64,000 nt of DNA from Lentisphaerota bacterium (lineage in GTDB: Bacteria > Verrucomicrobiota > Lentisphaeria > Victivallales > Victivallaceae): assembly GCA_015061615.1 (NCBI GenBank), contig SUWE01000002.1, positions 30,023 to 94,022 on the forward strand. Reading direction: 5' to 3'. Every line of letters starts with the position of its first letter. Position 1 is the first letter of the stretch. This document shows positions 19,371-39,537 of the stretch, piece by piece. The translations under genes were made by a program, and so were the position numbers. The notes under the pieces are model-generated. The model had not been told where the DNA came from and searched no databases. It saw only the letters and a list, made by a program, of their open reading frames with translations.

Positions 19371-21196
19371 ACCGTTCCATCAGCAACCGCTCACTGCGCG
19401 GCATTGATGAGTTTGAAAAAGCCGCCGTCACGGCGATAAAAACAAGTGACCGCAATTTACTTATCCACTCCGGGCCGGGGAGCGGAAAAACGGAACTTCT
19501 CGCCCGGAAAGCGGCTTATCTGCTTGAAAACGATGCGCTGCCCGCCAATAAGAAAATTCTTGCTCTGAGTTTCAAACGCAACAGTGTCCGCAATTTGCGC
19601 GACAGGGTAAACAGCTGTATTCCTCCTGAAACCAGTCACCGTTTTGAAGCGTATACCTTTGATGCCTTTGCCAAAATCCTGCTTGACCGTTTCGGAAATC
19701 TGCTCTCTGAACCGTGGCAGCTTGCCAACGGTTACACCATTGATGAAGAGTTGCTCTCCATGCCGAAACTGCGGGATGAACTTTATGCCGCCGCATCTGA
19801 TACCGCTTATTCAACTGCGGAAATCGAAAGCCTTGAATTGTATGGATTCTGCCGCAATCATCTGGTGCCAAAGCCGTTGCCGGCAGAAATAAATTTTTCC
19901 GGCGACTTGTCTCTTGATGCCGGAATGCTTATGTGGCAATACTGGCTGAACCGGAAACCGGCGACACTTATATTCCCGATGCTCAATGCGCTTGCAGAAC
20001 TTCTGCTCCGGACAAACAGGAACTTGAAGAAAATTTTACAGACCACTTACGGTTATATCTTTCTGGATGAGTTTCAGGATACGACCTTTGATCAATACCG
20101 GCTGTTGAAAAGCGCCTTTGACAACAGCGGCATCCCCGTTATTGCCGCCGGAGACGAAAAACAAAGCATCATGCTGTGGGCTGATGCAATGCCGGACGCA
20201 ATGGAACTTTTTATCAATGACTTCGATGCAAAAGAGATAAATCTGCAATGGAATTTCCGTTCCGCGCCGCCTCTGGTCGAACTTCAGAATGTTGTGGCAC
20301 GCAAACTTCTGCTGGATACTCTGCCGGAAGCAATTCCGGTAAAAAGTGATCTTGACGGCAAATGCCGCGCTCTTTACTTTTCTTCAGAAATTGAAGAAAA
20401 CCGTTTTATTATCAATGAGATATCGACCTTGCTTTCAAACGGATATTCGCCGCGTGATATCTGCATTTGTGTGCGGCACGACTCCGCCGCCTGCGCTCAG
20501 GTATTGAATCACTCTGCGGCAAACGGCTCATTGTATTTCCGCGATGAAGTTCCGGTACAGAATCTGCTGGATGAAAACGTTGTAAAACTGCTCTTTGCTT
20601 TATGGGAGGTGATTTTTACCGGCCGCGCCCCGGACTCGTGGGATAAAATCACCGGATTTACCGATGTTGACAGGCTGATAAATTTCAAAAGCGAAATAAA
20701 ATCGCTTTTTGCCAAAACGGAGTTCAGCAAAGAGAGATTTGAAGATTTGATAAACCGGAGCATCGCTTTTCTCGGAGAAAATAAAATCCGCGCCGCATTT
20801 GAAGAATACCTGCATGGTCAATGGCTCAGCAGTTGTCTTGAAGAGCTGGCGGCGGCGGCGGACAGGCAGAGTTTTTCAAATCCGGATTTTTATGATGCCC
20901 TGTTATCCATCAAAGGCGACACCGCCATTCCCGTATTGAGTGTGCAGCGGTGCAAAGTAAAAGAGTTCAGAACGGTATTTTTTGTTGGTCTGGAAGATAA
21001 CAGTTTCCGGGAGTTTCAACTTGATCTGCTTGAAGAAGGGTGTGCATTTTTCATTGCCCTGTCACGCGCTCAGGAGCAACTGTATTTTACCGCCTGCCGT
21101 TCCCGTAACGGTAATCCGCAGAAATTTGATGAGATCAGACCGCTTTACCGTCTGCTTTCAGGGTGCGGCGTGGAATTGGAAGAAATCAGGGAATAG
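19367..21196 (+). CDS. UvrD/PcrA/Rep-like SF1 helicase
   Basis: HSGPGSGKT (motif I), IFLDEFQDTT (motif II), AAGDEKQSIMLWADA (motif III), NFRSAPP (motif IV), and a diverged motif VI region FRTVFFVGLED...ALSRAQEQLYFT. ATGA overlap with the upstream gene. Confidence 0.8.
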   Translation: MNRSISNRSLRGIDEFEKAAVTAIKTSDRNLLIHSGPGSGKTELLARKAAYLLENDALPANKKILALSFKRNSVRNLRDRVNSCIPPETSHRFEAYTFDAFAKILLDRFGNLLSEPWQLANGYTIDEELLSMPKLRDELYAAASDTAYSTAEIESLELYGFCRNHLVPKPLPAEINFSGDLSLDAGMLMWQYWLNRKPATLIFPMLNALAELLLRTNRNLKKILQTTYGYIFLDEFQDTTFDQYRLLKSAFDNSGIPVIAAGDEKQSIMLWADAMPDAMELFINDFDAKEINLQWNFRSAPPLVELQNVVARKLLLDTLPEAIPVKSDLDGKCRALYFSSEIEENRFIINEISTLLSNGYSPRDICICVRHDSAACAQVLNHSAANGSLYFRDEVPVQNLLDENVVKLLFALWEVIFTGRAPDSWDKITGFTDVDRLINFKSEIKSLFAKTEFSKERFEDLINRSIAFLGENKIRAAFEEYLHGQWLSSCLEELAAAADRQSFSNPDFYDALLSIKGDTAIPVLSVQRCKVKEFRTVFFVGLEDNSFREFQLDLLEEGCAFFIALSRAQEQLYFTACRSRNGNPQKFDEIRPLYRLLSGCGVELEEIRE

Positions 21197-21295: not shown

Positions 21296-22825
21296 TCAAA
21301 ATCCAGGATACCGGTTCCACCACCGTTCTGTAACATGCCCGTCTTCGCCGGTTTCGATTTTCTGATGCAGATCATCTGCGACTTGACTGACGATTTCGTA
21401 TTCACGCAGATTTCGGCACCACTTTTCAGGGATACCGTTTTCGCCGTTAAGCACTCCGAGGATATTTCCGGCTATGGAGCCGGTAGAATCACTGTCACCG
21501 GAGATATTCACCGCTTCCAGAACCCCTGCCCTGAAATCCCATGTATGGTGCAAAGCACAATATATTCCAATGGCAAGAGCTTCTTCGGCCACCCAGCCTT
21601 CACCAAGTTCAGAAACTGAAGTTGCCATACGGCTGTGACGGATAGCGGCAAGCGTTTCTGCTGACTCAGGGAATTTTTCAAGATAAGCTTCAACCAAATC
21701 CAATGCCGTATTCAGACTTTTCCCCAGATACAGATAGGAAATAAGCATGGCAAAGGCTCCGCCGGAAGTGATTCCGGTGGGATGTCCGTGGGTGATCGCC
21801 GAAAATTCACACCCATATTCATAAGCCGTTTCCGGTGAAAAATACAACCCCGCAGGAGCCATGCGCATAACCGTTCCGCAGCCTTTGCTGTTATTTTTTG
21901 CCGTTTCACCGACCGGAGTTTCCTGCAATGCTGAAATACAGGTCATACCGGGGGCGCGGCGGGAGAAAAGCTGTTTTTCTTTTATCAGCCAGCCGCTGTT
22001 CAAAGCCTCATCCCACGCCTTGACACATGTCGCTTGAGTTTTCAGCCAGCGCAAATAAGCATAATGAAGGACGCCGCGCGCTCCGCAAATTCCCTTTTCG
22101 CGGGAGCGGACCGCTCCGCGCAAAATTCCTTCTGCGGTAAACAGTGCCATCTGGGTATCATCAGTTATCGAACCGGTACCGTCACCAAACTCGACATAGT
22201 CATCCACCGCATCGCCGAAAATTGATTCTATATCTCTGACACGGAGAAATTCCACCGGAGCCCCCAGAGCGTCACCAACGGCGCCGCCAAGCATACACCC
22301 CCGGATCATCCGGCGCGAAGCAACCGGCTTCAACTGCTCATCAATAGCTTCCCACGCTTCAAGAGCGTTTTGAGCAGCAGCGTCACCGGATAATTTTTTC
22401 AGCGCGTCAACAAGAGTGTCTGACTGATGCAGATAACGGAATGCGTACAACGCTCCATTCAACTGCACAAAATCCTTTGTATTGCAGATGCGGTCGGCGG
22501 TTTTGACCAGAATCACGTCGCGCACACCGCTGCCGGCGATGTGATTCAAATAAGATTCTTTGTCACACCCGCCATCGTGAGTAAGCTGTTTTATACAGGA
22601 AAGGACTCTTTCATTTGATGCCGCGATGATTTCATTTTCCGTCACAGCAGTATCTTCAAGCAGGTCATGTCCCCATGCCGCCATAACAGCAGTTGAACTT
22701 TCATCTTCACCCCATTGTTGAAGTGTTTCAGCCACCATCTGCGGGTGAACTATATAAGGGATTTTACTCTCATCATTGCTTTTGCGGAACTGTCCGGCAT
22801 GATATTTTTCGGCAAGGTGTTTCAC
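21296..22825 (-). CDS. Fusion protein: SpoT/Mesh1-like HD (p)ppGpp-hydrolase-type domain plus ADP-ribosylglycohydrolase (DraG/ARH) domain
   Basis: The N-terminus is AEKYHAGQFRKSNDESKIPYIVHPQMVAETL...AAWGHDLLEDTAVTENEI (HD_4-type). From about residue 170 it reads RGCMLGGAVGDALGAPVEF ... TDDTQMALFT ... ISGDSDSTGSIAGNILG (ARH family). Confidence 0.75.
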   Translation of the reverse strand: MKHLAEKYHAGQFRKSNDESKIPYIVHPQMVAETLQQWGEDESSTAVMAAWGHDLLEDTAVTENEIIAASNERVLSCIKQLTHDGGCDKESYLNHIAGSGVRDVILVKTADRICNTKDFVQLNGALYAFRYLHQSDTLVDALKKLSGDAAAQNALEAWEAIDEQLKPVASRRMIRGCMLGGAVGDALGAPVEFLRVRDIESIFGDAVDDYVEFGDGTGSITDDTQMALFTAEGILRGAVRSREKGICGARGVLHYAYLRWLKTQATCVKAWDEALNSGWLIKEKQLFSRRAPGMTCISALQETPVGETAKNNSKGCGTVMRMAPAGLYFSPETAYEYGCEFSAITHGHPTGITSGGAFAMLISYLYLGKSLNTALDLVEAYLEKFPESAETLAAIRHSRMATSVSELGEGWVAEEALAIGIYCALHHTWDFRAGVLEAVNISGDSDSTGSIAGNILGVLNGENGIPEKWCRNLREYEIVSQVADDLHQKIETGEDGHVTERWWNRYPGF

Positions 22826-22874
22826 AGGGATGCTCCTTTCGGGTTATTACACTGCATAATATACCGTTGTAAGA

Positions 22875-22895
22875 TGGACATCTAATGTCCGACAT
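22875..22895. promoter_or_regulatory. Operator-like motif TGGACA-N4-ATGTCCGACAT, copy 1
   Basis: TGGACATCTAATGTCCGACAT. It lies 4 nt past the WYL-gene stop and 50 nt upstream of the HD-ARH start. It contains inverted GGACA/TGTCC arms with a 5-nt spacer. Confidence 0.45.
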
Positions 22896-22898
22896 TGT

Positions 22899-23906
22899 TT
22901 ATCTGCCGGAATTTTCCAGAATTTTATTGGCAATCCGCACCATATAAAGCTGAAGTTCAGCCGGAGCATGCACCGCAGCATTTCCGCATGCAGACAATGC
23001 GATTTGTGCCGCTTCATATTCGGTAATATTCTGCAAGCGGATAATGACAGAATTTTCCCTGCGTTCTTTAATAACTTCCGGAGCGGAAGCGTAACGTTCA
23101 CAAATTCCTTTATCAAACGGGGCAAAAAATTCTATTACGGCCTCCGGCAGTTTCTCAAAATCAAACAAACCGTTCTCTTTCACTTGTTTGAGGATTTCCG
23201 GATCCGGGTCAAAGGTGGTTCCGGTCATCTCCGCACTCTCAATACGGTGGATGGCAAGAGTCAATTTTTTTGGCGGATCGCAAAGTTCCCCGTCAACCCG
23301 GTTTTGTTTACCGCGCAGATACCAGCTGCCGCCTTTGTGGATAAAAAGGTGAGGTTCAAAATATTTAACAGATACACGCTTGCTTGAAGCATAGGTCAGC
23401 TTCAAATCCCGGTGCTGTTCCCAGGCGTTGTAGCAGGTAAGAAAAATTTCCGGATCAGAGTGCGGAAGATATTCAGAGTTGATGACCTGAAAATTTTCCA
23501 GTTCAACTCCCTGAGCCATTCCGTTTTCATTTTTCATTATCAATGCTGCCACCGCACGGTTCATTTCTCCGCGCAAGGGGTCGGGCAGAAAACCACTGGC
23601 GATGCGTTCGCCGAGCAAAGCGGCTTTCATTTCAAACGGTTCCACCATAAGATCTTCGTTGTACCAGTCGGTGTTGGAAAGGTAATACCCCTTACGGGAT
23701 TCATCGTAATGGACGGGCGCCCCGTATTCATCACGGAGATCGGCGATATCCCGCTGAAATGTTTTACCGGAAGTTTTCTTGTATGCTCCGGCAATATCAA
23801 GTTTTTCCATCTCTTTCAAAAAACGCGGATAATTCGGATAGCGGTTCTGGCGCATCATCTTGACGATAGTTTGTATTCTGCGGATCTGATTTTTATTTGC
23901 CGGCAT
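22899..23906 (-). CDS. WYL-domain transcriptional regulator (HTH + WYL + C-terminal domain; BrxR/CapW/PafBC-like architecture)
   Basis: 335 aa. The N-terminal wHTH is RIQTIVKMMRQNRYPNYPRFLKEMEKL...TFQRDIADLRDEYGAPVHYDESRKGYYL. It has a literal GGSWYLRG motif. Confidence 0.8.
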   Translation of the reverse strand: MPANKNQIRRIQTIVKMMRQNRYPNYPRFLKEMEKLDIAGAYKKTSGKTFQRDIADLRDEYGAPVHYDESRKGYYLSNTDWYNEDLMVEPFEMKAALLGERIASGFLPDPLRGEMNRAVAALIMKNENGMAQGVELENFQVINSEYLPHSDPEIFLTCYNAWEQHRDLKLTYASSKRVSVKYFEPHLFIHKGGSWYLRGKQNRVDGELCDPPKKLTLAIHRIESAEMTGTTFDPDPEILKQVKENGLFDFEKLPEAVIEFFAPFDKGICERYASAPEVIKERRENSVIIRLQNITEYEAAQIALSACGNAAVHAPAELQLYMVRIANKILENSGR

Positions 23907-23981
23907 AAATATATCCCCATATATATAAAAAGTATCACCTCTCTATAAAATATCATGATTTTTTTGAAAATCAAGAGAAGG

Positions 23982-24002
23982 TGGACAAAAGATGTCCGAC
24001 AT
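23982..24002. promoter_or_regulatory. Operator-like motif TGGACA-N4-ATGTCCGACAT, copy 2
   Basis: TGGACAAAAGATGTCCGACAT. It sits in the divergent promoter region, 76 nt upstream of the WYL start and 121 nt upstream of the ankyrin-operon ATG. 17 of 21 positions match copy 1. Confidence 0.45.
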
Positions 24003-24122
24003 GTACCACTATATTAAACGCTGTAACAACAACACGGCAGTTTTGATGCAATGGAGATAAAAACCGGGTGGTCCAATCATAAATTCCATCGGAAATGCCA
24101 CCAAGCCAAAGGAGAAAAAATC

Positions 24123-24743
24123 ATGAACGAAAAAGATGCTTTGAAAAAATTCCATGAATGCAGTGCGAACAATGACTTAGACGGAGCATGCGAAGCACTG
24201 AAACACATTTCCGCCGAAACAATAAATTTTCAGAATGATGACGACTATGATATGCTGATACAGGCAACTGTTGACGGCAATACCTGCGCCGTGGAGGCAT
24301 TGCTGAATGACGGCAGATGCGACCTGACACATGAGGAAAATCTCTGCGGCATGACCGCTTATGAGTTTTCAAAAGATTACGCACCGGACAGCCGTATCCG
24401 CCAATTATTTCAGCTGAAAAAATACCGGAAAATCTCTCTTTTCAATTTCTTTATTGCGATTCAGAAAAATGATACAGAAGCAGTAACCGCTCATCTTGCG
24501 ACAGGCAAACACCCTGCCCTGAATAAAAATGTATTTTACAGCATGCCTCCGGGCTTCCTGATTGAACTGCCGCTGGCAACAGCAGTAAAGAAAGATTGCG
24601 CGGAAATGGTAAAAATCCTGCTTGAACATGGTGCTTTGCCTGATGCACACTGCCGCAAAAATGAAAAAACTCCGCAACAGCTCGCGGAAACACACCCTGA
24701 AATATTGAAGTTATTCCTTGAAACAAAGGCGGATATGCAATGA
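24123..24743 (+). CDS. Ankyrin-repeat protein
   Basis: ATG 24123 follows AAAGGAG. ANK-type repeats include DMLIQATVDGNTCAVEALLNDGRCDL and LPLATAVKKDCAEMVKILLEHGALPD. Confidence 0.7.
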   Translation: MNEKDALKKFHECSANNDLDGACEALKHISAETINFQNDDDYDMLIQATVDGNTCAVEALLNDGRCDLTHEENLCGMTAYEFSKDYAPDSRIRQLFQLKKYRKISLFNFFIAIQKNDTEAVTAHLATGKHPALNKNVFYSMPPGFLIELPLATAVKKDCAEMVKILLEHGALPDAHCRKNEKTPQQLAETHPEILKLFLETKADMQ

Positions 24744-25342
24744 ATATACGCCCCGAAAATAATCTGGAATCGGCGATCTGCGAAAAAGATACTGAAAAAC
24801 TTCTCATCGCAGTTGCTGAAGAAGAAGCTATGTTCCGCCTTGCTTACGCAGGCGGACTTGATGAAAATTTTTCCGAAGAAGTTATTTTTGCCGTGCTGCT
24901 GGTTGCAACACCCAAAAAACTGCTTGAATCAATGAATACTGCTCAATTCAGACATTATCACAATCCCGGTGAGAGATTGCAGAAATTGACAGCCCATGCG
25001 CTTGCTCCTTTGCCGGAAAATCCCACCACCGGAGAAAGCGCCCTGATAAAGGCGATCGTCAACAGCGATGACACTGAGATATCAAGACTTATTCTTGAAG
25101 AAGGGGTCAAATTCAACGGCTTTGCCCCGGAACTTCTGCTGTGGCTGCCGACCTTTTCCGCTGATACCCTTATCACATTTTTGAAAGATGGTCTTTCTGC
25201 GAAACTCAAGGCAATCGTACTGGGAATTTTACTCAAAGAGGTGGAAAACCCAAATCTTTTTCAAAAATTCTCTTATCAGGAAAGAGTCCGTTTTGCCAAC
25301 ATCATGCTGCAAATAATGATGAAACACGATATGGAGGGATGA
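24740..25342 (+). CDS. Hypothetical alpha-helical protein with a weak ankyrin-like repeat
   Basis: 200 aa. 4-nt overlap with the upstream gene. ESALIKAIVNSDDTEISRLILEEGVKFN resembles an ANK repeat. Confidence 0.5.
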   Translation: MNIRPENNLESAICEKDTEKLLIAVAEEEAMFRLAYAGGLDENFSEEVIFAVLLVATPKKLLESMNTAQFRHYHNPGERLQKLTAHALAPLPENPTTGESALIKAIVNSDDTEISRLILEEGVKFNGFAPELLLWLPTFSADTLITFLKDGLSAKLKAIVLGILLKEVENPNLFQKFSYQERVRFANIMLQIMMKHDMEG

Positions 25343-25345
25343 TTT

Positions 25346-26155
25346 ATGAACGACAATGCACAACAGCTTGTAAAAGAATTTATTGCCGAAAAGCTCAACG
25401 GCGATCTGTATGCGCTTGAAAGTTTTGATTTCAAGACCTTGCGTGACTCGGCAAAATACGGTACTCCCGACCGCAGCTTTGATTGCGATGACACGAATAT
25501 CATGCGGGCAGTCTATGTGGTATTATGGGGGGATTCACTGCCTTACCTGAGCTTGCACGATATCGGCAGCGGAAAAAATTACCGTGGTGATACGATGAAT
25601 ACATTTCATACCATGTTCGGCAGAGAGATTCCGGAAAAACCGGGATTTTTTGCCGGTTTGGAAAAATACTCACCATCTGATGAAATGCGGGAAAAAGTCC
25701 GTAACTTCGGCAGACTCTGCTCAAATATCGGCAACTTTTGCATTCTGCCCAACCGGAACTGCCGCCGGACAACGTTGAATTGTTACCGCGGAACAAATCA
25801 ATGGCGGGATTTTTTCGACCGCTTTCTGATTGAACTCCACCGGGTTCTTGACAATGCAGACGCTCAGGATGATACCCTGAAAGAACTGGTGGCAAAAAAC
25901 GATTTCTGTTTCAGCAAATTCAAAGGTACTGCCGGTTTTGCCGGATTGAGAAAAATCCTGCTGTTCGACGATTATCTTGATCCGGAATCAGAACTGCCGC
26001 AGGAAATATTCCCGTTGAATTATCACTGGAAAAATATTGAAAAGCGTGAACAATATCTGCTTGATGCTGAAAAATATCTTGCAGAAAGTGAAAGAATCAT
26101 CCTTCACCGCGCTGATATGATGATACGGATATTGGCAGAAAAACTCGCCGTCTGA
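25346..26155 (+). CDS. Hypothetical protein, family not recognised
   Basis: 269 aa. It starts 4 nt after the previous stop. Conserved-looking blocks are GDTMNTFHTMFG, NIGNFCILPN and WRDFFDRFL. I cannot assign any known domain. Confidence 0.5.
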   Translation: MNDNAQQLVKEFIAEKLNGDLYALESFDFKTLRDSAKYGTPDRSFDCDDTNIMRAVYVVLWGDSLPYLSLHDIGSGKNYRGDTMNTFHTMFGREIPEKPGFFAGLEKYSPSDEMREKVRNFGRLCSNIGNFCILPNRNCRRTTLNCYRGTNQWRDFFDRFLIELHRVLDNADAQDDTLKELVAKNDFCFSKFKGTAGFAGLRKILLFDDYLDPESELPQEIFPLNYHWKNIEKREQYLLDAEKYLAESERIILHRADMMIRILAEKLAV

Positions 26156-32185: not shown

Positions 32186-32554
32186 AAGCTCCCGCCGGTT
32201 TCCGGCTTGTCTCCGGGACATTACCCAAAAATAAGTATTGCCGCGTTCTGTTACAACTCTCCGCTGAAAAGTTGTTTCAATCCCAGGATAGCAACGAACA
32301 TAACAGCAAAAATCCCATAAGACACTCCTTGATTTCTTGAAATTGCCTCTAAAGATACCACAAAAACATATCTTTGTCAACATTGCTTTTTTTTGAAAAT
32401 ATTGTTGTCGCTCCGAACTTTGCCGCACCTATCCGTACAAACTCAAAAAAAACTGAAACAATCTCTTTGCAACTGCTTGAAAAAAAAAAACTTATGATAA
32501 ATTATATTAAAAAGCACCATTTTTTACAACATTTTTAAGAGAAAGGGCAGTTTT

Positions 32555-34843
32555 ATGGCAGAGTATCACATTTATTCAGGCATGGTCAGCAGCGGACTGA
32601 CACTATCAGATTATGATTATATGTTCATCTCCTCCGGCGGGATGGCAGAGAATACAACCGTAAATGAAATGGGAGGAGTTATAATCTTCGACAGTGGTAC
32701 AGCCAACAGCACCACAGTTAATTCCTACGGAGGCATTGGGATATACCAAGGAGGAACAGCCAATAACACAACTGTTAATATGCTGGGGACGATAGTCATA
32801 GATTCCGAAGGTACAGCAAACAATACCTTGATCAACTCCTATGGAATGATGGGCATCTACGCTGGCGGAACAGCTAACAATACGACATGCCATAGAAATG
32901 GAATTATTGATGCCTTCGGCACAGTAAATAACACAACATTAGAAGGAGGCAGCATGCGCATCTCCTCTGGTGGTAAGGCTGACAATACAATAAACAAAGG
33001 TTTCATGTACATTTACTCCGGCGGCACGGCTGACAATACAACTATCAATTACTATGGCAGCATGAACATCTACGGAGGAACAGCAAACAACACTGATATT
33101 AGCAATGCCGGTGAAATGTGCATATTCTCTGGCGGAACAGCGAACAGCACTACCGTTAATCAAGGAGGATGGATGTACCTCTATGACGGAACGGCAAATA
33201 GCACGACTGTCAATTCTGAAGGCGCCATGGAAATCTACAGTGGTACGGCAACAAACATCGTTGTTAAAGCTGGAGCCAGACTTGGAATCACAGTTGCACC
33301 TGACACCTATATACAAGGAACATATAATGGTTCTGCATTTGAAATGAAAAATGCAACTATTAATGGATATACCATTAATTCATGGTGTGGCATGGGCATC
33401 GCGTCCGGGGGGACTGCTAACAGTACAACGGTGGATTCAGAGGGCGAAATGTACGTTTACTTTGGCGGAGCAGCAAATAACACAACCGTAAATTCCGGTG
33501 GTTACATTTATGTTGGTGATGATTATTATCACAATAAAGGCGGAGTGATGACCTGCACCACTGTAAATACAAATGGCAATATGTACATCTACTCCGGCGG
33601 GATTCATCGCGGTTCTTTGCAGATTACCAGCGGGGCAGTTGTTTCAGCGTATGCTGGCGCTAAAATTGATTTTACCGTGGCTGACCGGAACACAGAAGAT
33701 GACTACTTGATCAACGATCTGTCGTTGATTCAGGGTACGCCAACCTATACTATCCCCGTATCCACAGATCAAGCAGACGGCACTTACAAACTTGCTCAGG
33801 GCGCAAACAATTTCACCGGAACGCTCACTATCGGTGACGGTACGGTCGATTACGGAACAATTACTGTCAACGGTGCAGACTTTGTTCATAATGGAGTAAC
33901 ATACTCGCTTGATCAAGTCAGCGGTAACCTGACTCTGACTGTCTCCGGAGGAAAAACCGCCGCAGTTGACGGTGACCTTGACGGCAACGGTCTTGCCGAC
34001 GTTATCCTTGTTCACACGAAGCAGGGATACTCCGGAGCGTGGCTCACTACCGGAACTTCTTCTGTTATCAAGTGGGGCAACCTCGGCAATGTCAACAGCA
34101 AAGTCGAACTTGTCGGAATGGGTAATGTCAAAGGAACTTCTACCAATGGTTCCGATATCATCATGAAAATCGGCACCACTGTTGCAGCTTGGACGACCGA
34201 TGGCGGAAAGGTGACAGGTTACAAAGAACTTTACACCCTGAAATCCAACATGAATATGCTCGGCATCGGTGATTTTGACGGAGACGGTGTGACCGATTAT
34301 CTCCTGCGTTCCACCGCCGGAGACCTCGGCTATGTCACCGGAGATGACAACAAGTGGCACTATATCAAAGGTCTTGGCAAAGAGTGGAAAATCTCCGCTG
34401 TCGGCGACCTTGACGGCAACGGATGCGACGATGTGATCGTCCGTCATGATGCCGGATTCACCGGCGCTTACATGATTGATGAAAACGGTAAAATCACCTG
34501 GTCAAGTCTCGATACCCTCAAGAGTGATATGTCCATTGTCGGGACGGGAGACTTCAACGGCGACGGCGTGGATGACGTCCTTTTGCAGAACAAATCCAAC
34601 GGCTGGGTCGGAGCTTGGCTCGTTGAAGATGGTCGTGTTGACTCCTTTATCGGTCTATGCAACAACAAAAACACGATCGAACAGATCGCAGATTTCAACG
34701 GTGACGGAATCGACGATCTCCGTATCCGCACCGAAAAAGGCGATATCGGCGTCCTTTATGTCAACGGCGCCGACGATACCACATGGAAATATTTCCAGAG
34801 TGTCGGCAAAGAGTGGGATACCTCTTTCGCCCTGATTTCGTAA
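32555..34843 (+). CDS. Large AIDA-type repeat protein with a C-terminal FG-GAP/VCBS-like propeller (762 aa)
   Basis: It has about 19-aa repeats of form YSGGTANNTTVNS.G.M.I from residue 1 and no signal peptide. The C-terminus has repeated loops DLDGNGLADVILV, GDFDGDGVTDYLL, GDLDGNGCDDVIV, GDFNGDGVDDVLL and ADFNGDGIDDLRI. Confidence 0.8.
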   Translation: MAEYHIYSGMVSSGLTLSDYDYMFISSGGMAENTTVNEMGGVIIFDSGTANSTTVNSYGGIGIYQGGTANNTTVNMLGTIVIDSEGTANNTLINSYGMMGIYAGGTANNTTCHRNGIIDAFGTVNNTTLEGGSMRISSGGKADNTINKGFMYIYSGGTADNTTINYYGSMNIYGGTANNTDISNAGEMCIFSGGTANSTTVNQGGWMYLYDGTANSTTVNSEGAMEIYSGTATNIVVKAGARLGITVAPDTYIQGTYNGSAFEMKNATINGYTINSWCGMGIASGGTANSTTVDSEGEMYVYFGGAANNTTVNSGGYIYVGDDYYHNKGGVMTCTTVNTNGNMYIYSGGIHRGSLQITSGAVVSAYAGAKIDFTVADRNTEDDYLINDLSLIQGTPTYTIPVSTDQADGTYKLAQGANNFTGTLTIGDGTVDYGTITVNGADFVHNGVTYSLDQVSGNLTLTVSGGKTAAVDGDLDGNGLADVILVHTKQGYSGAWLTTGTSSVIKWGNLGNVNSKVELVGMGNVKGTSTNGSDIIMKIGTTVAAWTTDGGKVTGYKELYTLKSNMNMLGIGDFDGDGVTDYLLRSTAGDLGYVTGDDNKWHYIKGLGKEWKISAVGDLDGNGCDDVIVRHDAGFTGAYMIDENGKITWSSLDTLKSDMSIVGTGDFNGDGVDDVLLQNKSNGWVGAWLVEDGRVDSFIGLCNNKNTIEQIADFNGDGIDDLRIRTEKGDIGVLYVNGADDTTWKYFQSVGKEWDTSFALIS

Positions 34844-34903
34844 ACACGGAATTATTCTACAATAAAGTTGTTCATTGCAAAATCTTTTGAGAAGGCAAGT
34901 TTT

Positions 34904-37900
34904 ATGGCAAGATACGACATTTATTCAGGCATGGTCAGCAGCGGCTTGACACTGCGATACGACTCCATGTACATCTCCTCTGCCGGGACAGCAAACAACA
35001 CAACCGTTAATTCATACTGCTACATGCACATCTCCTCCGGAGGGACGGCGAACAGCACCACCGTTAATTCCGATGGCTACATATACATCTACTCCGGCGG
35101 TACAGCGAACAGTACCACTGTTAATTCAAGTGGCTGGATGGGAATCTACTCCGGCGGAACGGCAAACAGTACCACCGTTAATTCAAGTGGCTGGATGGGA
35201 ATCTACTCCGGCGGAACGGCAAACAGTACCACCGTTAATGACGGGGGCTCCATGTACATCTCCTCCGGCGGAACGGCGAACAGCACCACGGTTAATTCCA
35301 ATGGTCACATGTACATCTACTCCGGCGGCACGGCAACAGACATTGTTGCTCAATCAGGAGCATGGCTTGGCATAACCGTTGCCCCTAATACCTATATTCA
35401 GGGAACTTATAACGGTTCTGCATTTGAAATGAAAAATGCCTATATTTCGGGGTATACCATTTACGAAGGCTGCTATATGTACATCTCCTCCGGCGGTACA
35501 GCCAATAATACCACCGTTAATTCAGGGGGAACTATAACAATTAGTTCTGGGGGTGTTGCAAATTCATTAACATTGTCTGCCGGTGCGTTTTTGGGAGGTT
35601 TTGCTTTTGCTGAGGATAAGTATTGGGAAATCATCAATGGAACTGTAAAAATTGCTGACAAAGTTTATATTAGTGGAAGTAAAATGTGGATCTACTCCGG
35701 CGGAACGGCTAACAGAACCACTGTTAATGGCGGGGGCTCCATGTACATCTCCTCCGGAGGAACGGCGAACAGCACCACTGTTGATGGTGCCGTCATGTAC
35801 ATCTCCTCCGGCGGAACGGCAAACAGTACCACCGTTAATGACGGGGGCTCCATGTACATCTCCTCCGGCGGAACGGCGAACAGCACTACCGTTAATTACT
35901 GGGGCTTCATGGACATCTACTCTGGCGGGGAGGCTAACAGCACCACAGTTAATGACTGGGGCTTCATGTACATCTCCTCTGGCGGGGAGGCTAACAGTAC
36001 CACCGTTAATTACGGGGGCAACATGAGCATCGACTACGGCGGTACAGCGAACAGTACCACGGTTAATTACGGGGGCAACATGAGCATCGACTACGGCGGT
36101 ACAGCATACAATATCACCGTTAATTCCGGGGGCACTATAAGAATTAGCTCTGGGGGTGTTGCAAATTCATTAACATTGTCTGCCGGTGCGTTTTTGGGAG
36201 GTTTTGCTTTTACAGAGGATAAGTATTGGGAAATCATCAATGGAACTGTAAAAATTGCTGACAAAGTTTATATTCGTGGAAGTCAAATGTGGATCAACTC
36301 CGGAGGAACGGCTAACGACACAACCGTTAATTCCGATGCCGTCATGGACATCTACTCCGGCGGAACAGCCAATAATACAACCGTTAATTCCGGGGGCCAT
36401 ATATACATTAGTTATGGAGGTGTTGCAAATTCATTAACATTGTCTGCCGGTGCATGTTTGGGAGGTTTTGCTTTTGCAGAGGACAAGTATTTTGCAAAGA
36501 TCAATAACGGCTCTGCAATTATTGCTGATAATGTTTATATTCTGGGAATGAATATGCATATCTCCTCCGGCGGGACGGTGAACGGCACTATCATTAGTAG
36601 CGGCGCCATGTACATCTCCTCCGGCGGAACGGCGAACAATACAACTGTTGATTTCGCAGGCTCAATGTACATCTACTCCGGCGGAACGGCGAACAGTACC
36701 ACCGTTAATTGGAATGGCCACATGTACATCAACACCGGAGGAACGGCGAATAACACCTCTGTTGATGGTGGCCACATGTACATCAACGGCGGGACGGCAA
36801 ACTACACTACCGTTAATTCACGTGGAAACATGCACGTTTGGGCTGGCACGGCGAATAATGTCGCCGTTAATTCCGGATGCAGCGTATACATTTATGGGGG
36901 TGTTGTAAATTCATTAACATTGTCTGCCGGTGCATGTTTGGGAGGTTTTGCCTTTACAGAGGATAAGTATTGGGAAATCATCAATGGAACTGTAAAAATT
37001 GCTGACAATGTTTATATTAGTGGAAGTCAAATGTGGATCAACTCCGGAGGAACGGCGAACAGCACCACTGTTAATTCCAGTGGCGGCATGTTCATCAACT
37101 CCGGAGGAACGGCGAACAGCTCTACCGTTAATCGAGGAGGCGGCATGTACATCAACTCCGGAGGAACGGCGAACAATACAACTGTTGATTTCGCAGGCGC
37201 CATGTACATCTCCTCCGGCGGTACAGCGAATAACACCACTGTTGATGGTGGCGTCATGTACATCAACTCCGGAGGAACGGCGAACAGCACCACGGTTGTT
37301 GATAGTGGCCACATGTACATCAGTTCTAACGGGGCAGCGTACAGCACCATTGTTAATGGCGGCTACATAGACATCTCCACCTGGGGGACGGCAAACAACA
37401 CCACTGTTGATGGCGGCAGTATATATATAAAATCCGGTGGGATGGCGAACAGCACCACTGTTGATAGGGGTTGCATGTACATCAGATCTAACGGGGCAGC
37501 GTACAGCACCACTGTTAATTCCGGAGGTACAATACGCCTCTCCTCCGGCGGCAAAGCAAACAGCACCACCGTTAATGACGGGGGCGCCATGGACATCTAC
37601 TCCGGCGGTACAGCTGCCGCAATCAAAGAAAATGGCGGATTTGTTTATGTTGCCGATGGGGCAAACGTTACTTTCGCATCAAATACAATTACCGGTATTA
37701 CGTTGTCTAATACCAGTATGAGTGTTCATTCAAACACTGTGGCTAACAGCACTACCGTCAATTCAAACAGCGATATGTACATCTACTCTGGTGGAACGGC
37801 GAACGCGATTAAAGAAAATGGCGGTTACGTTCATATTGACGATAGCGCAAACGTTACTTTTGCATCAAATACAATTACCGGTATTACGTTGTCTAATACC

Positions 37901-39487
37901 AGTATGAGTGTTCATTCAAACACTGTGGCAAACAGCACCACCGTTTATGATGGCTACATGTGCATCTGCTCCGGCGGAACGGCGAACAGCACCTACGTTA
38001 ATGGCGGCATGGACATCTGCTCCGGCGGAACGGCGAACAGCACCACCGTTTATGATGGCTACATGTACATCTACTCCGGCGGAATTGCTAACAACACAAT
38101 ACTTAAATATGGCGGCCATATAAGCATCGACGGAACGGCAAACAGTACCACCGTTAATTCAAGTGGCTGGATGAACATCTACTCCGGCGGAACAGCAAGC
38201 AACACAGCAGTTAACTCCGGCGGCAAAATAGACCTCTCCTCCGGTAGTGTTCATCATGGTTCATTGCAGATTGCCAGCGGAGCGGTTGTTTCAGCATACA
38301 GCGGTTCAGTAATTGATTTCACTGTTGCTGACCGAAAAACCTCCGATGGTTATCTGATCAATCATTTGTCTCTTATTAAAGGCGCTCCGACTTACACTAT
38401 CACCGTTTCGGCAGATCAGGAGTTCGGAACTTACAAACTTGCTCAGGGAGCGGGCAGTTTCAATAAAACTATTACTATTGGCGATGGTTCGGTCAATTAC
38501 GGTTCACTTACCGTCAATGGAGAAGCCATTGAATACGACGGTTCAACCTATAAGTTGGTAAAAAACGACGGTAACTTGAAACTTTGTGTAACTGTTGCTG
38601 ATGAGTCTGTATCAGATGACCTTGACGGTAACGGTCTTGCCGATGTTATTCTCGTCCACACGAAGCAGGGATATTCCGGAGCTTGGCTTACAACAGGAGA
38701 TGCTTCGGTTATCAAGTGGGGCAACCTCGGCAATGTCAATGACAAAGTTGAACTTGTCGGAATGGGTAATGTCAAAGGAACTTCTACCAATGGTTCCGAT
38801 ATCATCATGAAAATCGGTACCACCGTTGCCGCATGGGTCACTGATGGCGGCAAAGTCAAGAGCTATAAGGAACTTTACACCCTGAAATCCAACATGAATA
38901 TGCTTGGAATCGGTGACTTTGACGGTGACGGCGTGACCGATTACCTGCTGCGTTCCACCGCCGGAGACCTCGGCTATGTCACCGGAGATGACAACAAGTG
39001 GCACTATATCAAAGGTCTTGGCAAAGAGTGGAAAATCTCCGCTGTCGGCGACCTTAACGGCGATGGATGTGACGATGTGATCGTCCGTCATGATGCCGGA
39101 TTCACCGGCGCTTACATGATTGATGAAAACGGAAAAGTCACCTGGGCAAGTCTCGACACCCTGAAAAGTGATATGACTATTGTCGGAACGGGAGACTTCA
39201 ACGGTGACGGTGTGGATGACGTTCTCCTTCAGAACAAATCCAACGGCTGGGTCGGAGCATGGCTCGTTGAAAACGGTCGTGTTGACTCCTTCATCGGTCT
39301 TTGCAACAACAAAAACACCATTGAGCAGATTGCCGACTTCAACGGTGACGGGATCGACGACCTCCGCATCCGTGCCGAAAAAGGCGATATCGGCGTTCTC
39401 TACGTCAACGGCGCCGACGATACCACATGGAAATATTTCCAAAGTGTCGGTAAAGAGTGGGATACCTCCTTTTCCGCCCTTGCATAG
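34904..39487 (+). CDS. Giant AIDA-type repeat protein with a C-terminal FG-GAP/VCBS-like propeller (1528 aa)
   Basis: ATG 34904 (MARYDIYSGMVSSGLTL) is homologous to the start of the upstream paralog, including the leader GGCA(A)GTTTTATGGCA. The body is dozens of SGGTANSTTVN-type repeats. The C-terminal ~330 aa are near-identical to the upstream gene. Confidence 0.85.
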   Translation: MARYDIYSGMVSSGLTLRYDSMYISSAGTANNTTVNSYCYMHISSGGTANSTTVNSDGYIYIYSGGTANSTTVNSSGWMGIYSGGTANSTTVNSSGWMGIYSGGTANSTTVNDGGSMYISSGGTANSTTVNSNGHMYIYSGGTATDIVAQSGAWLGITVAPNTYIQGTYNGSAFEMKNAYISGYTIYEGCYMYISSGGTANNTTVNSGGTITISSGGVANSLTLSAGAFLGGFAFAEDKYWEIINGTVKIADKVYISGSKMWIYSGGTANRTTVNGGGSMYISSGGTANSTTVDGAVMYISSGGTANSTTVNDGGSMYISSGGTANSTTVNYWGFMDIYSGGEANSTTVNDWGFMYISSGGEANSTTVNYGGNMSIDYGGTANSTTVNYGGNMSIDYGGTAYNITVNSGGTIRISSGGVANSLTLSAGAFLGGFAFTEDKYWEIINGTVKIADKVYIRGSQMWINSGGTANDTTVNSDAVMDIYSGGTANNTTVNSGGHIYISYGGVANSLTLSAGACLGGFAFAEDKYFAKINNGSAIIADNVYILGMNMHISSGGTVNGTIISSGAMYISSGGTANNTTVDFAGSMYIYSGGTANSTTVNWNGHMYINTGGTANNTSVDGGHMYINGGTANYTTVNSRGNMHVWAGTANNVAVNSGCSVYIYGGVVNSLTLSAGACLGGFAFTEDKYWEIINGTVKIADNVYISGSQMWINSGGTANSTTVNSSGGMFINSGGTANSSTVNRGGGMYINSGGTANNTTVDFAGAMYISSGGTANNTTVDGGVMYINSGGTANSTTVVDSGHMYISSNGAAYSTIVNGGYIDISTWGTANNTTVDGGSIYIKSGGMANSTTVDRGCMYIRSNGAAYSTTVNSGGTIRLSSGGKANSTTVNDGGAMDIYSGGTAAAIKENGGFVYVADGANVTFASNTITGITLSNTSMSVHSNTVANSTTVNSNSDMYIYSGGTANAIKENGGYVHIDDSANVTFASNTITGITLSNTSMSVHSNTVANSTTVYDGYMCICSGGTANSTYVNGGMDICSGGTANSTTVYDGYMYIYSGGIANNTILKYGGHISIDGTANSTTVNSSGWMNIYSGGTASNTAVNSGGKIDLSSGSVHHGSLQIASGAVVSAYSGSVIDFTVADRKTSDGYLINHLSLIKGAPTYTITVSADQEFGTYKLAQGAGSFNKTITIGDGSVNYGSLTVNGEAIEYDGSTYKLVKNDGNLKLCVTVADESVSDDLDGNGLADVILVHTKQGYSGAWLTTGDASVIKWGNLGNVNDKVELVGMGNVKGTSTNGSDIIMKIGTTVAAWVTDGGKVKSYKELYTLKSNMNMLGIGDFDGDGVTDYLLRSTAGDLGYVTGDDNKWHYIKGLGKEWKISAVGDLNGDGCDDVIVRHDAGFTGAYMIDENGKVTWASLDTLKSDMTIVGTGDFNGDGVDDVLLQNKSNGWVGAWLVENGRVDSFIGLCNNKNTIEQIADFNGDGIDDLRIRAEKGDIGVLYVNGADDTTWKYFQSVGKEWDTSFSALA

Positions 39488-39499
39488 TCTGTTAAAAAT

Positions 39500-39537
39500 A
39501 AACGTGCCGCACTCTATAAAAAGAATGCGGCACGTTT
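39500..39537. terminator. Bidirectional hairpin terminator
   Basis: AAACGTGCCGCA (39500-39511) pairs with TGCGGCACGTTT (39526-39537). It is flanked by an A-run upstream and TTTTGTTT downstream, between convergent genes. Confidence 0.75.

Follow-up and report, generated by a model that had tools for sequence, protein, structure and literature searches.

Leaderless AIDA-repeat proteins with a C-terminal FG-GAP propeller: a 26-member family for which type I secretion is the most likely export route

How giant proteins built from adhesin-type repeats could leave a cell when they carry neither a signal peptide nor a translocator barrel is the question raised by two adjacent genes on the forward strand of the window, i.e., the 64,000-nucleotide stretch of DNA that was analysed. 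ORF1 (32555..34843; 762 aa) is a signal-less protein in which a beta-helix of AIDA repeats is followed by a beta-sandwich and a C-terminal FG-GAP propeller, and ORF2 (34904..39487; 1527 aa) repeats this architecture with ~40 AIDA units ahead of its beta-sandwich linker and propeller. Judged from their sequences, both probably belong to a set of 26 paralogues that are displayed on, or secreted by, what is probably a Victivallales bacterium of the gut. The first-pass annotation had left a choice between an unrecognised export route and an intracellular location; it was right that no secretion signal is recognisable, as the profiles confirm, but the route now points to a type I secretion system (T1SS). 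At a rough probability of two in three, the family joins an autotransporter-style passenger to the export logic of T1SS, with a C-terminal module replacing the RTX repeats and signal.

The absence of a Sec leader, claimed at first reading, holds for both proteins. No hydrophobic N-terminal segment was found in a Kyte-Doolittle scan of the first 70 aa (11-aa window), in which the maxima were 1.24 for ORF1 and 0.84 for ORF2, against a reference of 2,079 genome ORFs, 25% of which reach at least 2.5. Nor does an upstream start supply a signal peptide. ORF1 is bounded on its 5′ side by an in-frame stop at 32498-32500, with no alternative start between it and the ATG at 32555. The longest frame of ORF2 opens at a TTG at 34868, and the ATG at 34904 (MARYDIYSG...) is its likely start because it lies in the same AGAAGG-N-TTTT-ATG context as the start of ORF1. 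Searches of both proteins with Pfam and NCBIfam profiles returned no autotransporter barrel and no T9SS, T1SS-target or other sorting domain, so that the reported lack of a barrel and, at profile level, of any recognisable secretion signal was borne out, including at the C-terminus, where no known secretion domain was matched.

The AIDA-type repeats themselves were recovered by profiles in both ORFs: Pfam AIDA (PF16168) matched 6 stretches of ORF1 (83.5 bits) and 18 of ORF2 (295.2 bits), and NCBIfam TIGR04415 (O_hepto_targRPT) matched 6 and 32 stretches, respectively. A loose motif count gave 9 and 40 units, most commonly spaced by 19 aa, and the DNA has tandem periods of 57 and 114 nt; the earlier description of "tens of units" fits ORF2 (~40) but not ORF1, which has about a dozen. 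From Pfam, model and motif spacing, the beta-solenoid of ORF1 comprises residues 1-372 (32555..33670, + strand), made of ~19-aa strand-loop-strand repeats of the AIDA/TibA type. In an AF2 model of full-length ORF1 (pLDDT 89.5) it appears as short periodic strands with pLDDT 93-98, and Foldseek matched the modelled beta-helix to Ag43 (7ko9/7koh, E ~1e-18) and TibA (4q1q, 1e-14). ORF1 and ORF2 share the repeat with the type Va autotransporters AIDA-I, TibA and Ag43, and the predicted beta-helix can be overlaid on the structures of Ag43 and glycosylated TibA. In aah-aidA and tibC-tibA, a heptosyltransferase gene lies directly upstream of its adhesin gene. The same order is seen here at C16:6013-7221, where a gene matching TIGR04414 (hepto_Aah_TibC; 491 bits, cut-off 200) ends 13 bp before a family gene (C16:7234-14256) that has no Pfam AIDA match. 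Unlike these autotransporters, the family has no Sec leader, beta-barrel translocator or autochaperone-barrel unit, and ends in a beta-sandwich and an FG-GAP propeller.

It could be argued from the repeats, their fold, the Aah/TibC enzyme and the presence of BamA in the genome that the proteins derive from type Va or two-partner passengers and have degenerated into non-functional remnants whose translocator lies elsewhere or has been lost. Such decay is very improbable. None of the 24 N-terminally complete members in the genome has a hydrophobic N-terminal segment, and this lack of a Sec leader rules out periplasmic transit to a barrel; the barrel itself (PF03797) was not found in the genome; and 26 intact frames, with a mean column identity of 69% in the C-terminal module, speak for selection.

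Behind the passenger of ORF1 lies a conserved beta-sandwich "linker" (residues ~380-465; 33692..33949, + strand; strands at 392-465 in the model) with the motif IDFTVADR...YTI.VS.DQ..GTYKLAQGA..F and no Pfam match. The propeller follows at residues ~470-755 of ORF1 (33962..34819, + strand) and ~1235-1520 of ORF2 (38606..39463, + strand), the two being 90% identical. Here the first-pass annotation, which saw an FG-GAP end with at least five calcium loops, proved accurate: FG-GAP (PF01839) scored 32.8 and 35.9 bits (cut-off 22.1 bits), and the D-x-[DN]-G-[DN]-G-x-x-D loop occurs exactly five times in either protein, at residues 474, 573, 618, 666 and 713 of ORF1 and 1239, 1338, 1383, 1431 and 1478 of ORF2. 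The AlphaFold propeller model has 24 strands over about 270 aa and, by strand count, is read as six four-stranded blades, whereas integrin and PVL propellers have seven. Foldseek matched it to UmbA4 (9oee_A, E 2e-12, TMq 0.72), to PVL lectins (~1e-7) and to TcB propellers, the sequence identity to the UmbA4 and PVL matches being 12-20%. UmbA4 of Streptomyces (bound to teichuronic acid in 9oee) and the fungal PVL of Psathyrella velutina (2bwr) share the FG-GAP fold and the calcium-loop motifs, but in the family the propeller is the terminal module of giant leaderless proteins. The last 7 residues of ORF1, TSFALIS (34820..34840, + strand), form a flexible tail (pLDDT <50 at residues 759-762 in the AF2 model) that is a candidate core of a secretion signal, and the pattern SVGxEW(D/S)T(S)(F/L)A(L/A)(I/L) is kept across the family.

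The 26 genes occupy 3.4% of the 2.71-Mb genome, with intact frames adding up to 30,486 aa. Their passengers are varied, while the C-terminal module of ~320 aa is 49-100% identical among the copies and ends at most 3 residues from the stop in all 26. In a wider survey, limited to the best 150 cluster representatives drawn from 1.84 billion proteins, the full C-terminal domain was present in 81 and ended at most 8 residues from the C-terminus in 79 of these; the remaining two have a second domain copy behind the first. No hydrophobic N-terminal segment was seen in 76 of the 78 M-started representatives, and the signal-peptide-like N-termini of the other two (P0063 and P0094) mean that the domain is not strictly bound to leaderless export. 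Tandem propellers also occur (in a protein of genome G031, in P0025 and in P0067), so the propeller fold must be more than just a signal. The family is very acidic, with a median pI of 4.33 (range 4.08-4.88) versus a genome median of 6.86, and only 0.6% of the 1,629 other proteins of the genome have a pI below 4.5; Cys makes up 0.64% versus 1.68%, and K+R 5.3% versus 11.5%.

These data bear on the intracellular option of the first-pass annotation, i.e., that the proteins are cytoplasmic beta-helices, for which the absence of a recognised signal is the sole point. This is hardly credible for proteins of extremely acidic, Cys-poor composition that combine extracellular-type domains: an adhesin beta-helix, FG-GAP calcium loops, an N-terminal Peptidase_C10 in two members and Ig-like domains in others. 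The homologues with RTX ends and the family genes that adjoin T1SS genes in relatives (see below) likewise speak against it.

A check of the genome for secretion components, proposed at first reading, yielded a T1SS set and no PF03797 barrel. The 876-aa product of C23:27947-30577 has Peptidase_C39-like, ABC_membrane and ABC_tran domains, and its best NCBIfam match is TIGR01846 (type_I_sec_HlyB) at 661 bits, below the curated cut-off of 725.55. It is the only HlyB-type ABC exporter in the genome, the other ABC_membrane proteins looking MsbA-like. The adjacent, overlapping gene matches TIGR01843 (type_I_hlyD; 276.8 bits, cut-off 208.65), and a TolC-family protein is encoded at C7:10743-12395 (148 bits, below the NCBIfam curated cut-off of 225.15). 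A regex scan found no genome ORF with three or more consecutive RTX nonapeptides, so this T1SS has no evident substrate unless it is the present family. Like the RTX substrates of T1SS (HlyA, LapA-like adhesins), the family proteins are large, repetitive and very acidic, contain little Cys, lack a leader and carry a calcium-binding module at the C-terminus; the two systems further share a HlyB-type ABC protein, C39-like domain included, and a HlyD adaptor, as well as, in relatives, a substrate gene directly upstream of the ABC gene. Unlike RTX proteins, they have no GGxGxDxUx nonapeptides (by regex and the absence of a HemolysinCabind match), and their calcium loops are FG-GAP loops of DxDGDG form that sit on a propeller rather than a beta-roll. 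In contrast to LapA, ORF1 and ORF2 have no N-terminal retention module, the repeats starting at residue 1.

The ABC gene was found in 11 other genomes that carry the family, and in three of these, from three genera, family genes lie near ABC-HlyD. In G031, 214 bp separate a family gene from the orthologous ABC gene downstream of it, the two being co-directional and followed by the HlyD gene; in G127 the gap to the ABC-HlyD genes downstream is 104 bp; and in G058 a single co-directional cluster has two family genes 9.8 kb ahead of ABC-HlyD, the T1SS genes sitting among Wzm/Wzt and glycosyltransferase genes. All three genomes belong to one taxonomic family (f5), so the synteny may reflect one ancestral arrangement. 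A genus-mate, G096, encodes two RTX-ended homologues (L252 3007-7923 and L250 3072-9173). One is a signal-less protein of 1,638 aa whose residues 6-1125 are 35% identical to the family member C86, the ~1,120 aa in common comprising the linker as well as a C10 peptidase and AIDA repeats (the beta-sandwich segment aligns in the RTX-ended homologues); where ORF1 and ORF2 have a propeller, it has a classical RTX block (Pfam HemolysinCabind, 46 bits) and a ~90-aa tail. The second scored 57.6 bits with HemolysinCabind. Taken together, the terminal domain, the T1SS-like composition, the HlyB/HlyD/TolC set, the absence of an RTX substrate, the synteny and the RTX swap indicate type I secretion as the most likely route.

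The weightiest objection is that the propeller may be only a surface-anchoring or host-binding lectin, export being by an undescribed, PVC-specific, vesicle- or lysis-based route other than HlyB/HlyD/TolC. The model does resemble lectin propellers, and the tandem propellers imply a role beyond targeting. The T1SS genes of the genome adjoin none of the 26 family genes, and the assembly is 84.65% complete, so another export system may lie unseen. Across the order, family and exporter do not co-vary: the ABC exporter was found in 75 of 121 sampled genomes, including all 17 genus-mates, and the family in 10 of these 121 (15 of 251 in a larger sample). An ABC match is absent in 3 of 14 other family-bearing genomes, which are 72-87% complete. 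We nevertheless consider a lectin-only role rather unlikely, since the domain sits at the extreme C-terminus in 79 of 81 representatives, the exchange of RTX for propeller on a homologous passenger and the adjacency to ABC-HlyD in three genomes are both hard to explain without an export role, and no alternative system was found when the genome was searched for PF03797 and for the T6SS sheath (PF05943, likewise absent).

For type I secretion, we infer a sequence of events that would run from glycosylation and export to calcium-driven folding and glycan binding. The proteins would be made without a Sec leader, their 19-aa AIDA/TibA/Ag43-type passenger probably being O-heptosylated in the cytoplasm by the Aah/TibC-family enzyme. 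They would then exit unfolded, C-terminus first, via HlyD, TolC and the genome's single HlyB-type ABC protein with its C39-like domain, the ~320-aa module (a six-bladed propeller with five DxDGDG loops and a flexible tail) standing in for RTX repeats and signal. Outside, calcium would fold the propeller first, and the beta-sandwich and then the beta-helix would stack onto it, from the C- to the N-terminus. Once folded, the propeller would probably bind a glycan as well: a surface polymer of the cell itself, which would retain the protein, or one from host or mucus.

A further parallel is offered by Caulobacter RsaA and Campylobacter fetus SapA, S-layer proteins that are secreted by T1SS and subject to multigene variation. 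The many paralogues, with one conserved module on variable remainders, are reminiscent of these systems, and the T1SS of G058 among Wzm/Wzt and glycosyltransferase genes recalls S-layer/O-antigen loci. A lattice-forming protein, single-promoter switching and glycan anchoring are not evidenced for the family, and the conserved anchoring module of SapA is N-terminal whereas that of the family is C-terminal.

Upstream of ORF1, a promoter-like site, TTGAAA-17-AATTAT, lies at 32477..32505 (+ strand), although such sites are not above chance in the region (14 found versus 12.4 expected). Its spacer holds an A11 tract (32480-32490) that is shorter by 1 or 2 A in contigs from other samples. Just 3′ of the ORF2 stop, a terminator-like, GC-rich hairpin of 16 bp (39500..39537) is possibly bidirectional, serving also a convergent phosphoglycerate mutase gene.

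ORF1 and ORF2, the two AIDA-repeat proteins with an FG-GAP propeller end, together with the family to which they belong, are probably substrates of a type I secretion system (T1SS; HlyB-type ABC exporter, HlyD adaptor and TolC) that carry a propeller-type C-terminal module, a reading to which we give a probability of roughly 65%. The two genes are co-directional, with ORF1 at 32555-34843 (762 aa) and the longest frame of ORF2 opening at a TTG at 34868; because the ATG at 34904 (MARYDIYSG...) follows a purine-rich box and a TTTT spacer as does the ATG of ORF1, 34904-39487 (1527 aa) was taken as the ORF2 gene. Inspection of the frame upstream of ORF1 revealed no alternative start between the in-frame stop at 32498 and the ATG, hence no upstream start that could provide a signal peptide, and a Kyte-Doolittle scan found no hydrophobic N-terminal segment in either protein. 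The first-pass annotation was thus borne out in its claim that signal peptides are absent. Its assignment of the repeats to the AIDA type was likewise corroborated, by Pfam AIDA (PF16168; 83.5 bits in 6 stretches of ORF1, 295.2 bits in 18 stretches of ORF2), by NCBIfam TIGR04415 (O_hepto_targRPT; 6 and 32 stretches) and by the predicted solenoid and its structural matches (see below), the profiles of full-length AIDA-I and Ag43 scoring far under their cut-offs. The repeat spacing is mostly 19 aa, with tandem periods of 57 and 114 nt in the DNA; the tens of units expected in each protein were found in ORF2 (40 by motif count), but ORF1 has roughly one dozen (9 by the same count).

At the C-terminus, FG-GAP (PF01839) scored 32.8 bits in ORF1 and 35.9 bits in ORF2 (cut-off 22.1), and the motif D-x-[DN]-G-[DN]-G-x-x-D was counted exactly five times in each protein. 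FG-GAP repeats with DxDxDG loops are the features of FG-GAP/integrin-alpha propellers; the five DxDGDG loops are putative calcium loops, and calcium binding is predicted. The domain had been put at ~330 aa with at least five loops; the loops and the FG-GAP assignment held, but the propeller itself spans about 270-290 aa. Pfam found no autotransporter barrel (PF03797) in ORF1 or ORF2, and the Pfam and NCBIfam matches of both proteins at E up to 0.1 included no T9SS, PEP-CTERM, LPXTG or other sorting or secretion domain, so that no recognised secretion domain emerged at the C-terminus by profile search. There is also no C-terminal transmembrane helix (the ORF1 tail, ...EWDTSFALIS, has no hydrophobic helix), and no match to HemolysinCabind (PF00353), the profile of RTX nonapeptides, in either protein.

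An AlphaFold model of the last 320 aa of ORF1, made with an alignment of 20 paralogues (pLDDT 86.6, pTM 0.83), is all-beta and has 24 strands after an N-terminal hairpin, which on our own reading of the strands would form six four-stranded blades. In the full-length ORF1 model, built on a 24-sequence alignment (pLDDT 89.5), four parts were distinguished: a beta-solenoid of short periodic strands (residues 1-372, pLDDT 93-98), a beta-sandwich (residues ~380-465, window 33692-33949), the propeller (residues ~483-750) and a disordered end (residues 759-762). When compared with the PDB using Foldseek, the solenoid matched Ag43 (7ko9 and 7koh, E about 1e-18) and TibC-glycosylated TibA (4q1q, E 1e-14), and the propeller matched best the Streptomyces protein UmbA4 with teichuronic acid (9oee_A, E 2e-12, TMq 0.72), followed by Psathyrella GlcNAc lectins and the TcB propeller of Tc toxins. 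The beta-sandwich (~100 aa; IDFTVADR...YTITVS.DQ..GTYKLAQGA..F...), which recurs at ORF2 residues ~1120-1235, had no Pfam match in either place; it precedes the propeller, is repeated within larger paralogues and is shared by the RTX-ended homologues that a genus-mate encodes.

With the C-terminal 317 aa of ORF1 as query, 26 matches at 49-100% identity were obtained in its own genome (2,706,922 bp in 109 contigs, 84.65% complete). In the ORF set all 26 copies end no more than 3 residues from the stop, with the common tail ...SVG(K/T)EWDTSF(A/S)(L/A)(I/L)(S/A), and the genes are spread over 19 contigs with four tandem pairs, ORF1-ORF2 among them. The family totals 30,486 aa, i.e., 3.4% of the genome, two copies being truncated by contig ends. 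One 336-aa ORF (C46:36430-37440) is almost wholly propeller, 94% identical to that of ORF1 and without a convincing start, and could represent either a truncation or a silent cassette. A Pfam scan covered 20 paralogues plus ORF1 and ORF2, leaving out this 336-aa ORF, the two contig-edge fragments and C104:3353-6574; AIDA was matched at E up to 0.001 in 20 of these 22 members and over the cut-off in 19, and several contain Ig-like domains (Big_13, BiPBP_C). Two members, C86:179-5563 and C12:39122-44131, begin with a streptopain-like Peptidase_C10 domain (38.4 and 43.7 bits), and therefore the propeller module also carries putative secreted proteases.

The absence of a leader extends to the whole family: a hydrophobic N-terminus is missing from all 24 members whose N-terminus is complete (Kyte-Doolittle, 11-aa window, first 70 aa), the maximum being at most 1.85 with one exception of 2.13, which comes from a stretch of upstream extension that overlaps with the gene before it, whereas 25% of 2,079 ORFs of the genome reach at least 2.5. 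The family is also set apart by its median pI of 4.33 (range 4.08-4.88) versus 6.86 for the rest of the genome, where 0.6% of 1,629 non-family proteins fall below 4.5, by its cysteine content (0.64% versus 1.68%) and by its lysine plus arginine content (5.3% versus 11.5%). An acidic pI and few cysteines are typical of RTX proteins, and by this analogy the composition of the family is that of T1SS substrates. The tandem GGxGxDxUx repeats (PF00353) that characterise RTX substrates were matched in neither ORF1 nor ORF2.

Glycosylated beta-helix adhesins of the AIDA/TibA/Ag43 type count as textbook examples of type V autotransporters, and the ~19-aa-repeat beta-helix passenger and the Aah/TibC enzyme of type Va AIDA-I, TibA and Ag43 are also encountered here; the Sec signal peptide and the 12-stranded PF03797 barrel of that type are, in contrast, both absent from the window proteins. 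BamA is present in the genome, but PF03797 had no match in the whole of it (84.65% complete), which upholds, beyond the two proteins, the earlier statement that a barrel is missing. The search for T1SS, T5SS and T9SS components that had been proposed at first reading was productive for one system: ABC, HlyD and TolC genes were found, but no PF03797 barrel in the genome and no T9SS match in the proteins. Delivery as T6SS cargo was rejected, as the sheath protein VipB (PF05943) was not found in the genome.

The genome has one T1SS-type ABC exporter (C23:27947-30577, 876 aa), composed of a ~160-aa N-terminal extension, a Peptidase_C39-like domain, ABC_membrane and ABC_tran, whose best NCBIfam match is TIGR01846 (type_I_sec_HlyB; 661 bits, under the cut-off of 725.55). 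The overlapping gene that follows encodes a HlyD-family type I adaptor (TIGR01843, 276.8 bits, cut-off 208.65), and a TolC-family protein (C7:10743-12395) has the right best match at 148 bits, under the cut-off of 225.15; the remaining ABC_membrane exporters are MsbA-like. The extension (residues 1-160, C23:27947-28426) is without a Pfam match; it is conserved across the order, with alignments that mostly begin at residues 17-31. Its interpretation as a second C39-like domain arising by internal duplication was discarded, BLASTP finding no similarity (E 27); the C39-like domain itself gave, against PDB sequences, only a weak HlyB match (E 0.23) that begins past the position of the catalytic Cys. 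A regex scan found no ORF in the genome with at least three consecutive RTX nonapeptides, and most other large proteins start with visible Sec-type leaders; there is thus a T1SS without another evident substrate, and 26 leaderless proteins without another evident exporter. In their own genome the family genes and the T1SS genes are unlinked. T1SS signals are not known to share a consensus, and T1SS recognition acts on the unfolded substrate. The first-pass view that no secretion signal is recognisable stands as regards profile matches, but the route is not blank, since the evidence points to a T1SS.

Genus-mates without the strict family still encode leaderless AIDA-repeat proteins. One of them, G035 (loci L241-L248), has at least seven with a divergent FG-GAP propeller end, six of which score 57-79 bits against our own profile, and the aromatic-glycine tail of this end, ...GWGG(L/I/M)GYWG.GYAGNWVD..AR(I/V)E.....F.(I/V)I(A/S), marks what is, judged by sequence, a second propeller-type terminal module. 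In another genus-mate, G096, two leaderless AIDA-repeat proteins end in classical RTX nonapeptides (HemolysinCabind, 57.6 and 46 bits) and a ~90-aa tail. One of the two, a 1,638-aa protein, aligns with the propeller-ended C86 member at 35% identity over residues 6-1125, i.e., through the C10, AIDA and beta-sandwich parts, after which the two diverge; homologous passengers therefore bear either an RTX-plus-signal end or a propeller end. Of all the single arguments that the propeller may serve as a T1SS C-terminal domain, this alternation carries the most weight.

Gene order was compared as well. In G031, a genome of the same order, the orthologous ABC gene and the HlyD gene after it are preceded, on the same strand and at a distance of 214 bp, by the gene of a 1,117-aa member that has Chlamydia-PMP-type repeats and a tandem pair of propellers; in G127 a gap of 104 bp separates the end of a family gene from the ABC start; and in G058 two family genes (2,947 and 1,137 aa) lead a co-directional cluster of Wzm/Wzt and glycosyltransferase genes, with ABC-HlyD 9.8 kb downstream. 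Linkage was seen in these 3 of the 11 other family-bearing genomes with the ABC, the two being on different contigs in the remaining 8, and three further family-bearing genomes (72-87% complete) gave no ABC match with the N-terminal query. As G031, G058 and G127 represent three genera of one family, one ancestral arrangement may account for all three. Of 121 sampled genomes of the order, 75 have the distinctive N-terminal 320 aa of the ABC, including all 17 sampled genus-mates, and the family is found in 10 of these 121 (E up to 1e-20), with no signal of co-variation; the exporter is therefore a conserved feature that does not co-vary, which counts against a simple one-to-one link. Gene position is nevertheless informative despite the lacking co-variation. 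In G058 (C57, L139/L140) and G031 (C14, L138), ABC-HlyD sits amid Wzm/Wzt-type glycan ABC-transporter and glycosyltransferase genes; with glycan-export genes around them, these loci recall T1SS loci for S-layers and O-antigen.

The enzyme that may modify the repeats was encountered in a search for GT9 genes. The 402-aa product of C16:6013-7221 matches Pfam TibC_1st (53 bits) and TIGR04414 Aah/TibC (491 bits, cut-off 200) and is, on these profile scores, a bona fide autotransporter strand-loop-strand O-heptosyltransferase of the Aah/TibC family. Its gene ends 13 bp ahead of a family gene (C16:7234-14256, 2,340 aa), in which Pfam found no AIDA match, and a second copy with 59% identity lies on contig C102. 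Because 129 of the 251 genomes of the order carry TibC-like homologues, the enzyme is a lineage feature and not tied to the propeller family (15 of 251), with which it shows no signal of co-variation. Members of the Aah/TibC family have O-heptosyltransferase activity on autotransporter strand-loop-strand repeats (cf. PMC4358343); by analogy with this activity we infer that the AIDA-type repeats of the family are heptosylated.

A phylogenetic survey, as had been recommended, found the domain beyond the window. The domain profile found 1,381 proteins at E up to 1e-30 among 1.84 billion cluster representatives, many of them generic multi-repeat FG-GAP proteins; among the best 150 of these 1,381, 81 have the whole domain in one piece, which ends at most 8 residues from the C-terminus in 79, the other two having a second copy behind it. 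Within the same best 150, 78 of the 81 are M-started and 76 of these 78 have no hydrophobic N-terminus, and the N-termini of P0063 and P0094 resemble Sec leaders. Close relatives in the reference genome collection were limited to 2 loci at 45% identity in one Victivallales MAG (all else 21-35%), and metagenome contigs yielded 2 true members among 74 loci (45-52% identity, on short contigs), the rest being generic FG-GAP proteins at 24-35%. In the ESM Atlas an AIDA plus FG-GAP cluster of 105 members has Lentisphaerota as its commonest phylum. At E up to 1e-40 the family is present in 15 of 251 genomes of the order, including 6 of 52 of its own genus, and its distribution is patchy within the order. 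Portions of the locus were found at 99% identity or more in contigs from animal gut and faeces metagenomes, these contigs being short and interrupted within the repeats.

With the lack of a leader and the presence of ABC, HlyD and TolC genes as the observations, we infer a seven-step route for type I export of the family. The proteins would be made in the cytoplasm without a leader and their repeats probably heptosylated; the HlyB-type ABC would then recognise the unfolded C-terminal region, and the chain would pass the ABC-HlyD-TolC channel with the C-terminus leading. Outside the cell, calcium on the five DxDGDG loops would fold the propeller, after which the beta-sandwich and then the beta-helix would fold from the C- to the N-terminus, a direction also taken by autotransporter passengers. 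Finally, the folded propeller may bind glycan, as suggested by its likeness to lectin propellers. A role of the fold beyond targeting is suggested by the tandem propellers (in the G031 protein and in the cluster representatives P0025 and P0067) and by the glycan-export genes beside the T1SS in G058 and G031. It is an unlikely but conceivable extension that the six-bladed FG-GAP propeller constitutes a previously unrecognised T1SS C-terminal class replacing RTX, acting as signal carrier, as extracellular calcium-dependent folding nucleus for an autotransporter-type beta-helix that folds C-to-N, and as a lectin retaining the protein on surface glycan of the cell itself, and that the 26 interchangeable paralogues form a variable heptosylated surface coat of this gut Lentisphaerota bacterium.

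The system as such is not new; new would be that a passenger of type V, with its glycosyltransferase, is combined with a type I route and with a calcium module other than RTX. The family suggests that an autotransporter passenger and its dedicated heptosyltransferase have been coupled to a type I system via a calcium-binding propeller. Full-text searches of the openly accessible literature gave no description of a C-terminal FG-GAP propeller on AIDA-type or TibC-associated proteins, nor of an FG-GAP propeller as a T1SS module; a Zymomonas MIP preprint and a P. tunicata BapP paper concern other architectures, with no C-terminal FG-GAP propeller. Genome annotation finds T1SS substrates by their RTX motifs. 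If type I export of the family is correct, the set of recognisable T1SS substrates would widen, the ~320-aa module would become a candidate secretion tag for testing, and there would be an explanation for the use to which a little-studied gut lineage, as yet uncultured, puts as much as 3.4% of its genome, likely a large and variable repertoire of surface adhesins and proteases.

Several other features of the window were recorded. Upstream of ORF1, a promoter-like site has in its 17-nt spacer an A11 tract (32480-32490), which in single contigs of other metagenome samples is shorter by 1 A (X1, X3) or 2 A (X2); these differences could reflect slipped-strand phase variation or an assembly artefact. 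Of 24 family genes, 9 have a homopolymer of at least 8 nt within 140 nt upstream. That ORF1-ORF2 belong to a phage or mobile element was considered and dismissed, the neighbours being housekeeping genes. Further upstream, 17889-21196 is occupied by two adjacent genes, one for an OLD-like TOPRIM protein of 493 aa and one for a UvrD-type helicase of 609 aa, a pair that we take to resemble a Gabija-type defence system. The cluster at 21296-26155, with genes for an ADP-ribosylglycohydrolase of 509 aa, a WYL-domain protein and a protein with ankyrin repeats, together with an unassigned 200-aa ORF and a weak DUF6994 match, may be another defence or regulatory island.
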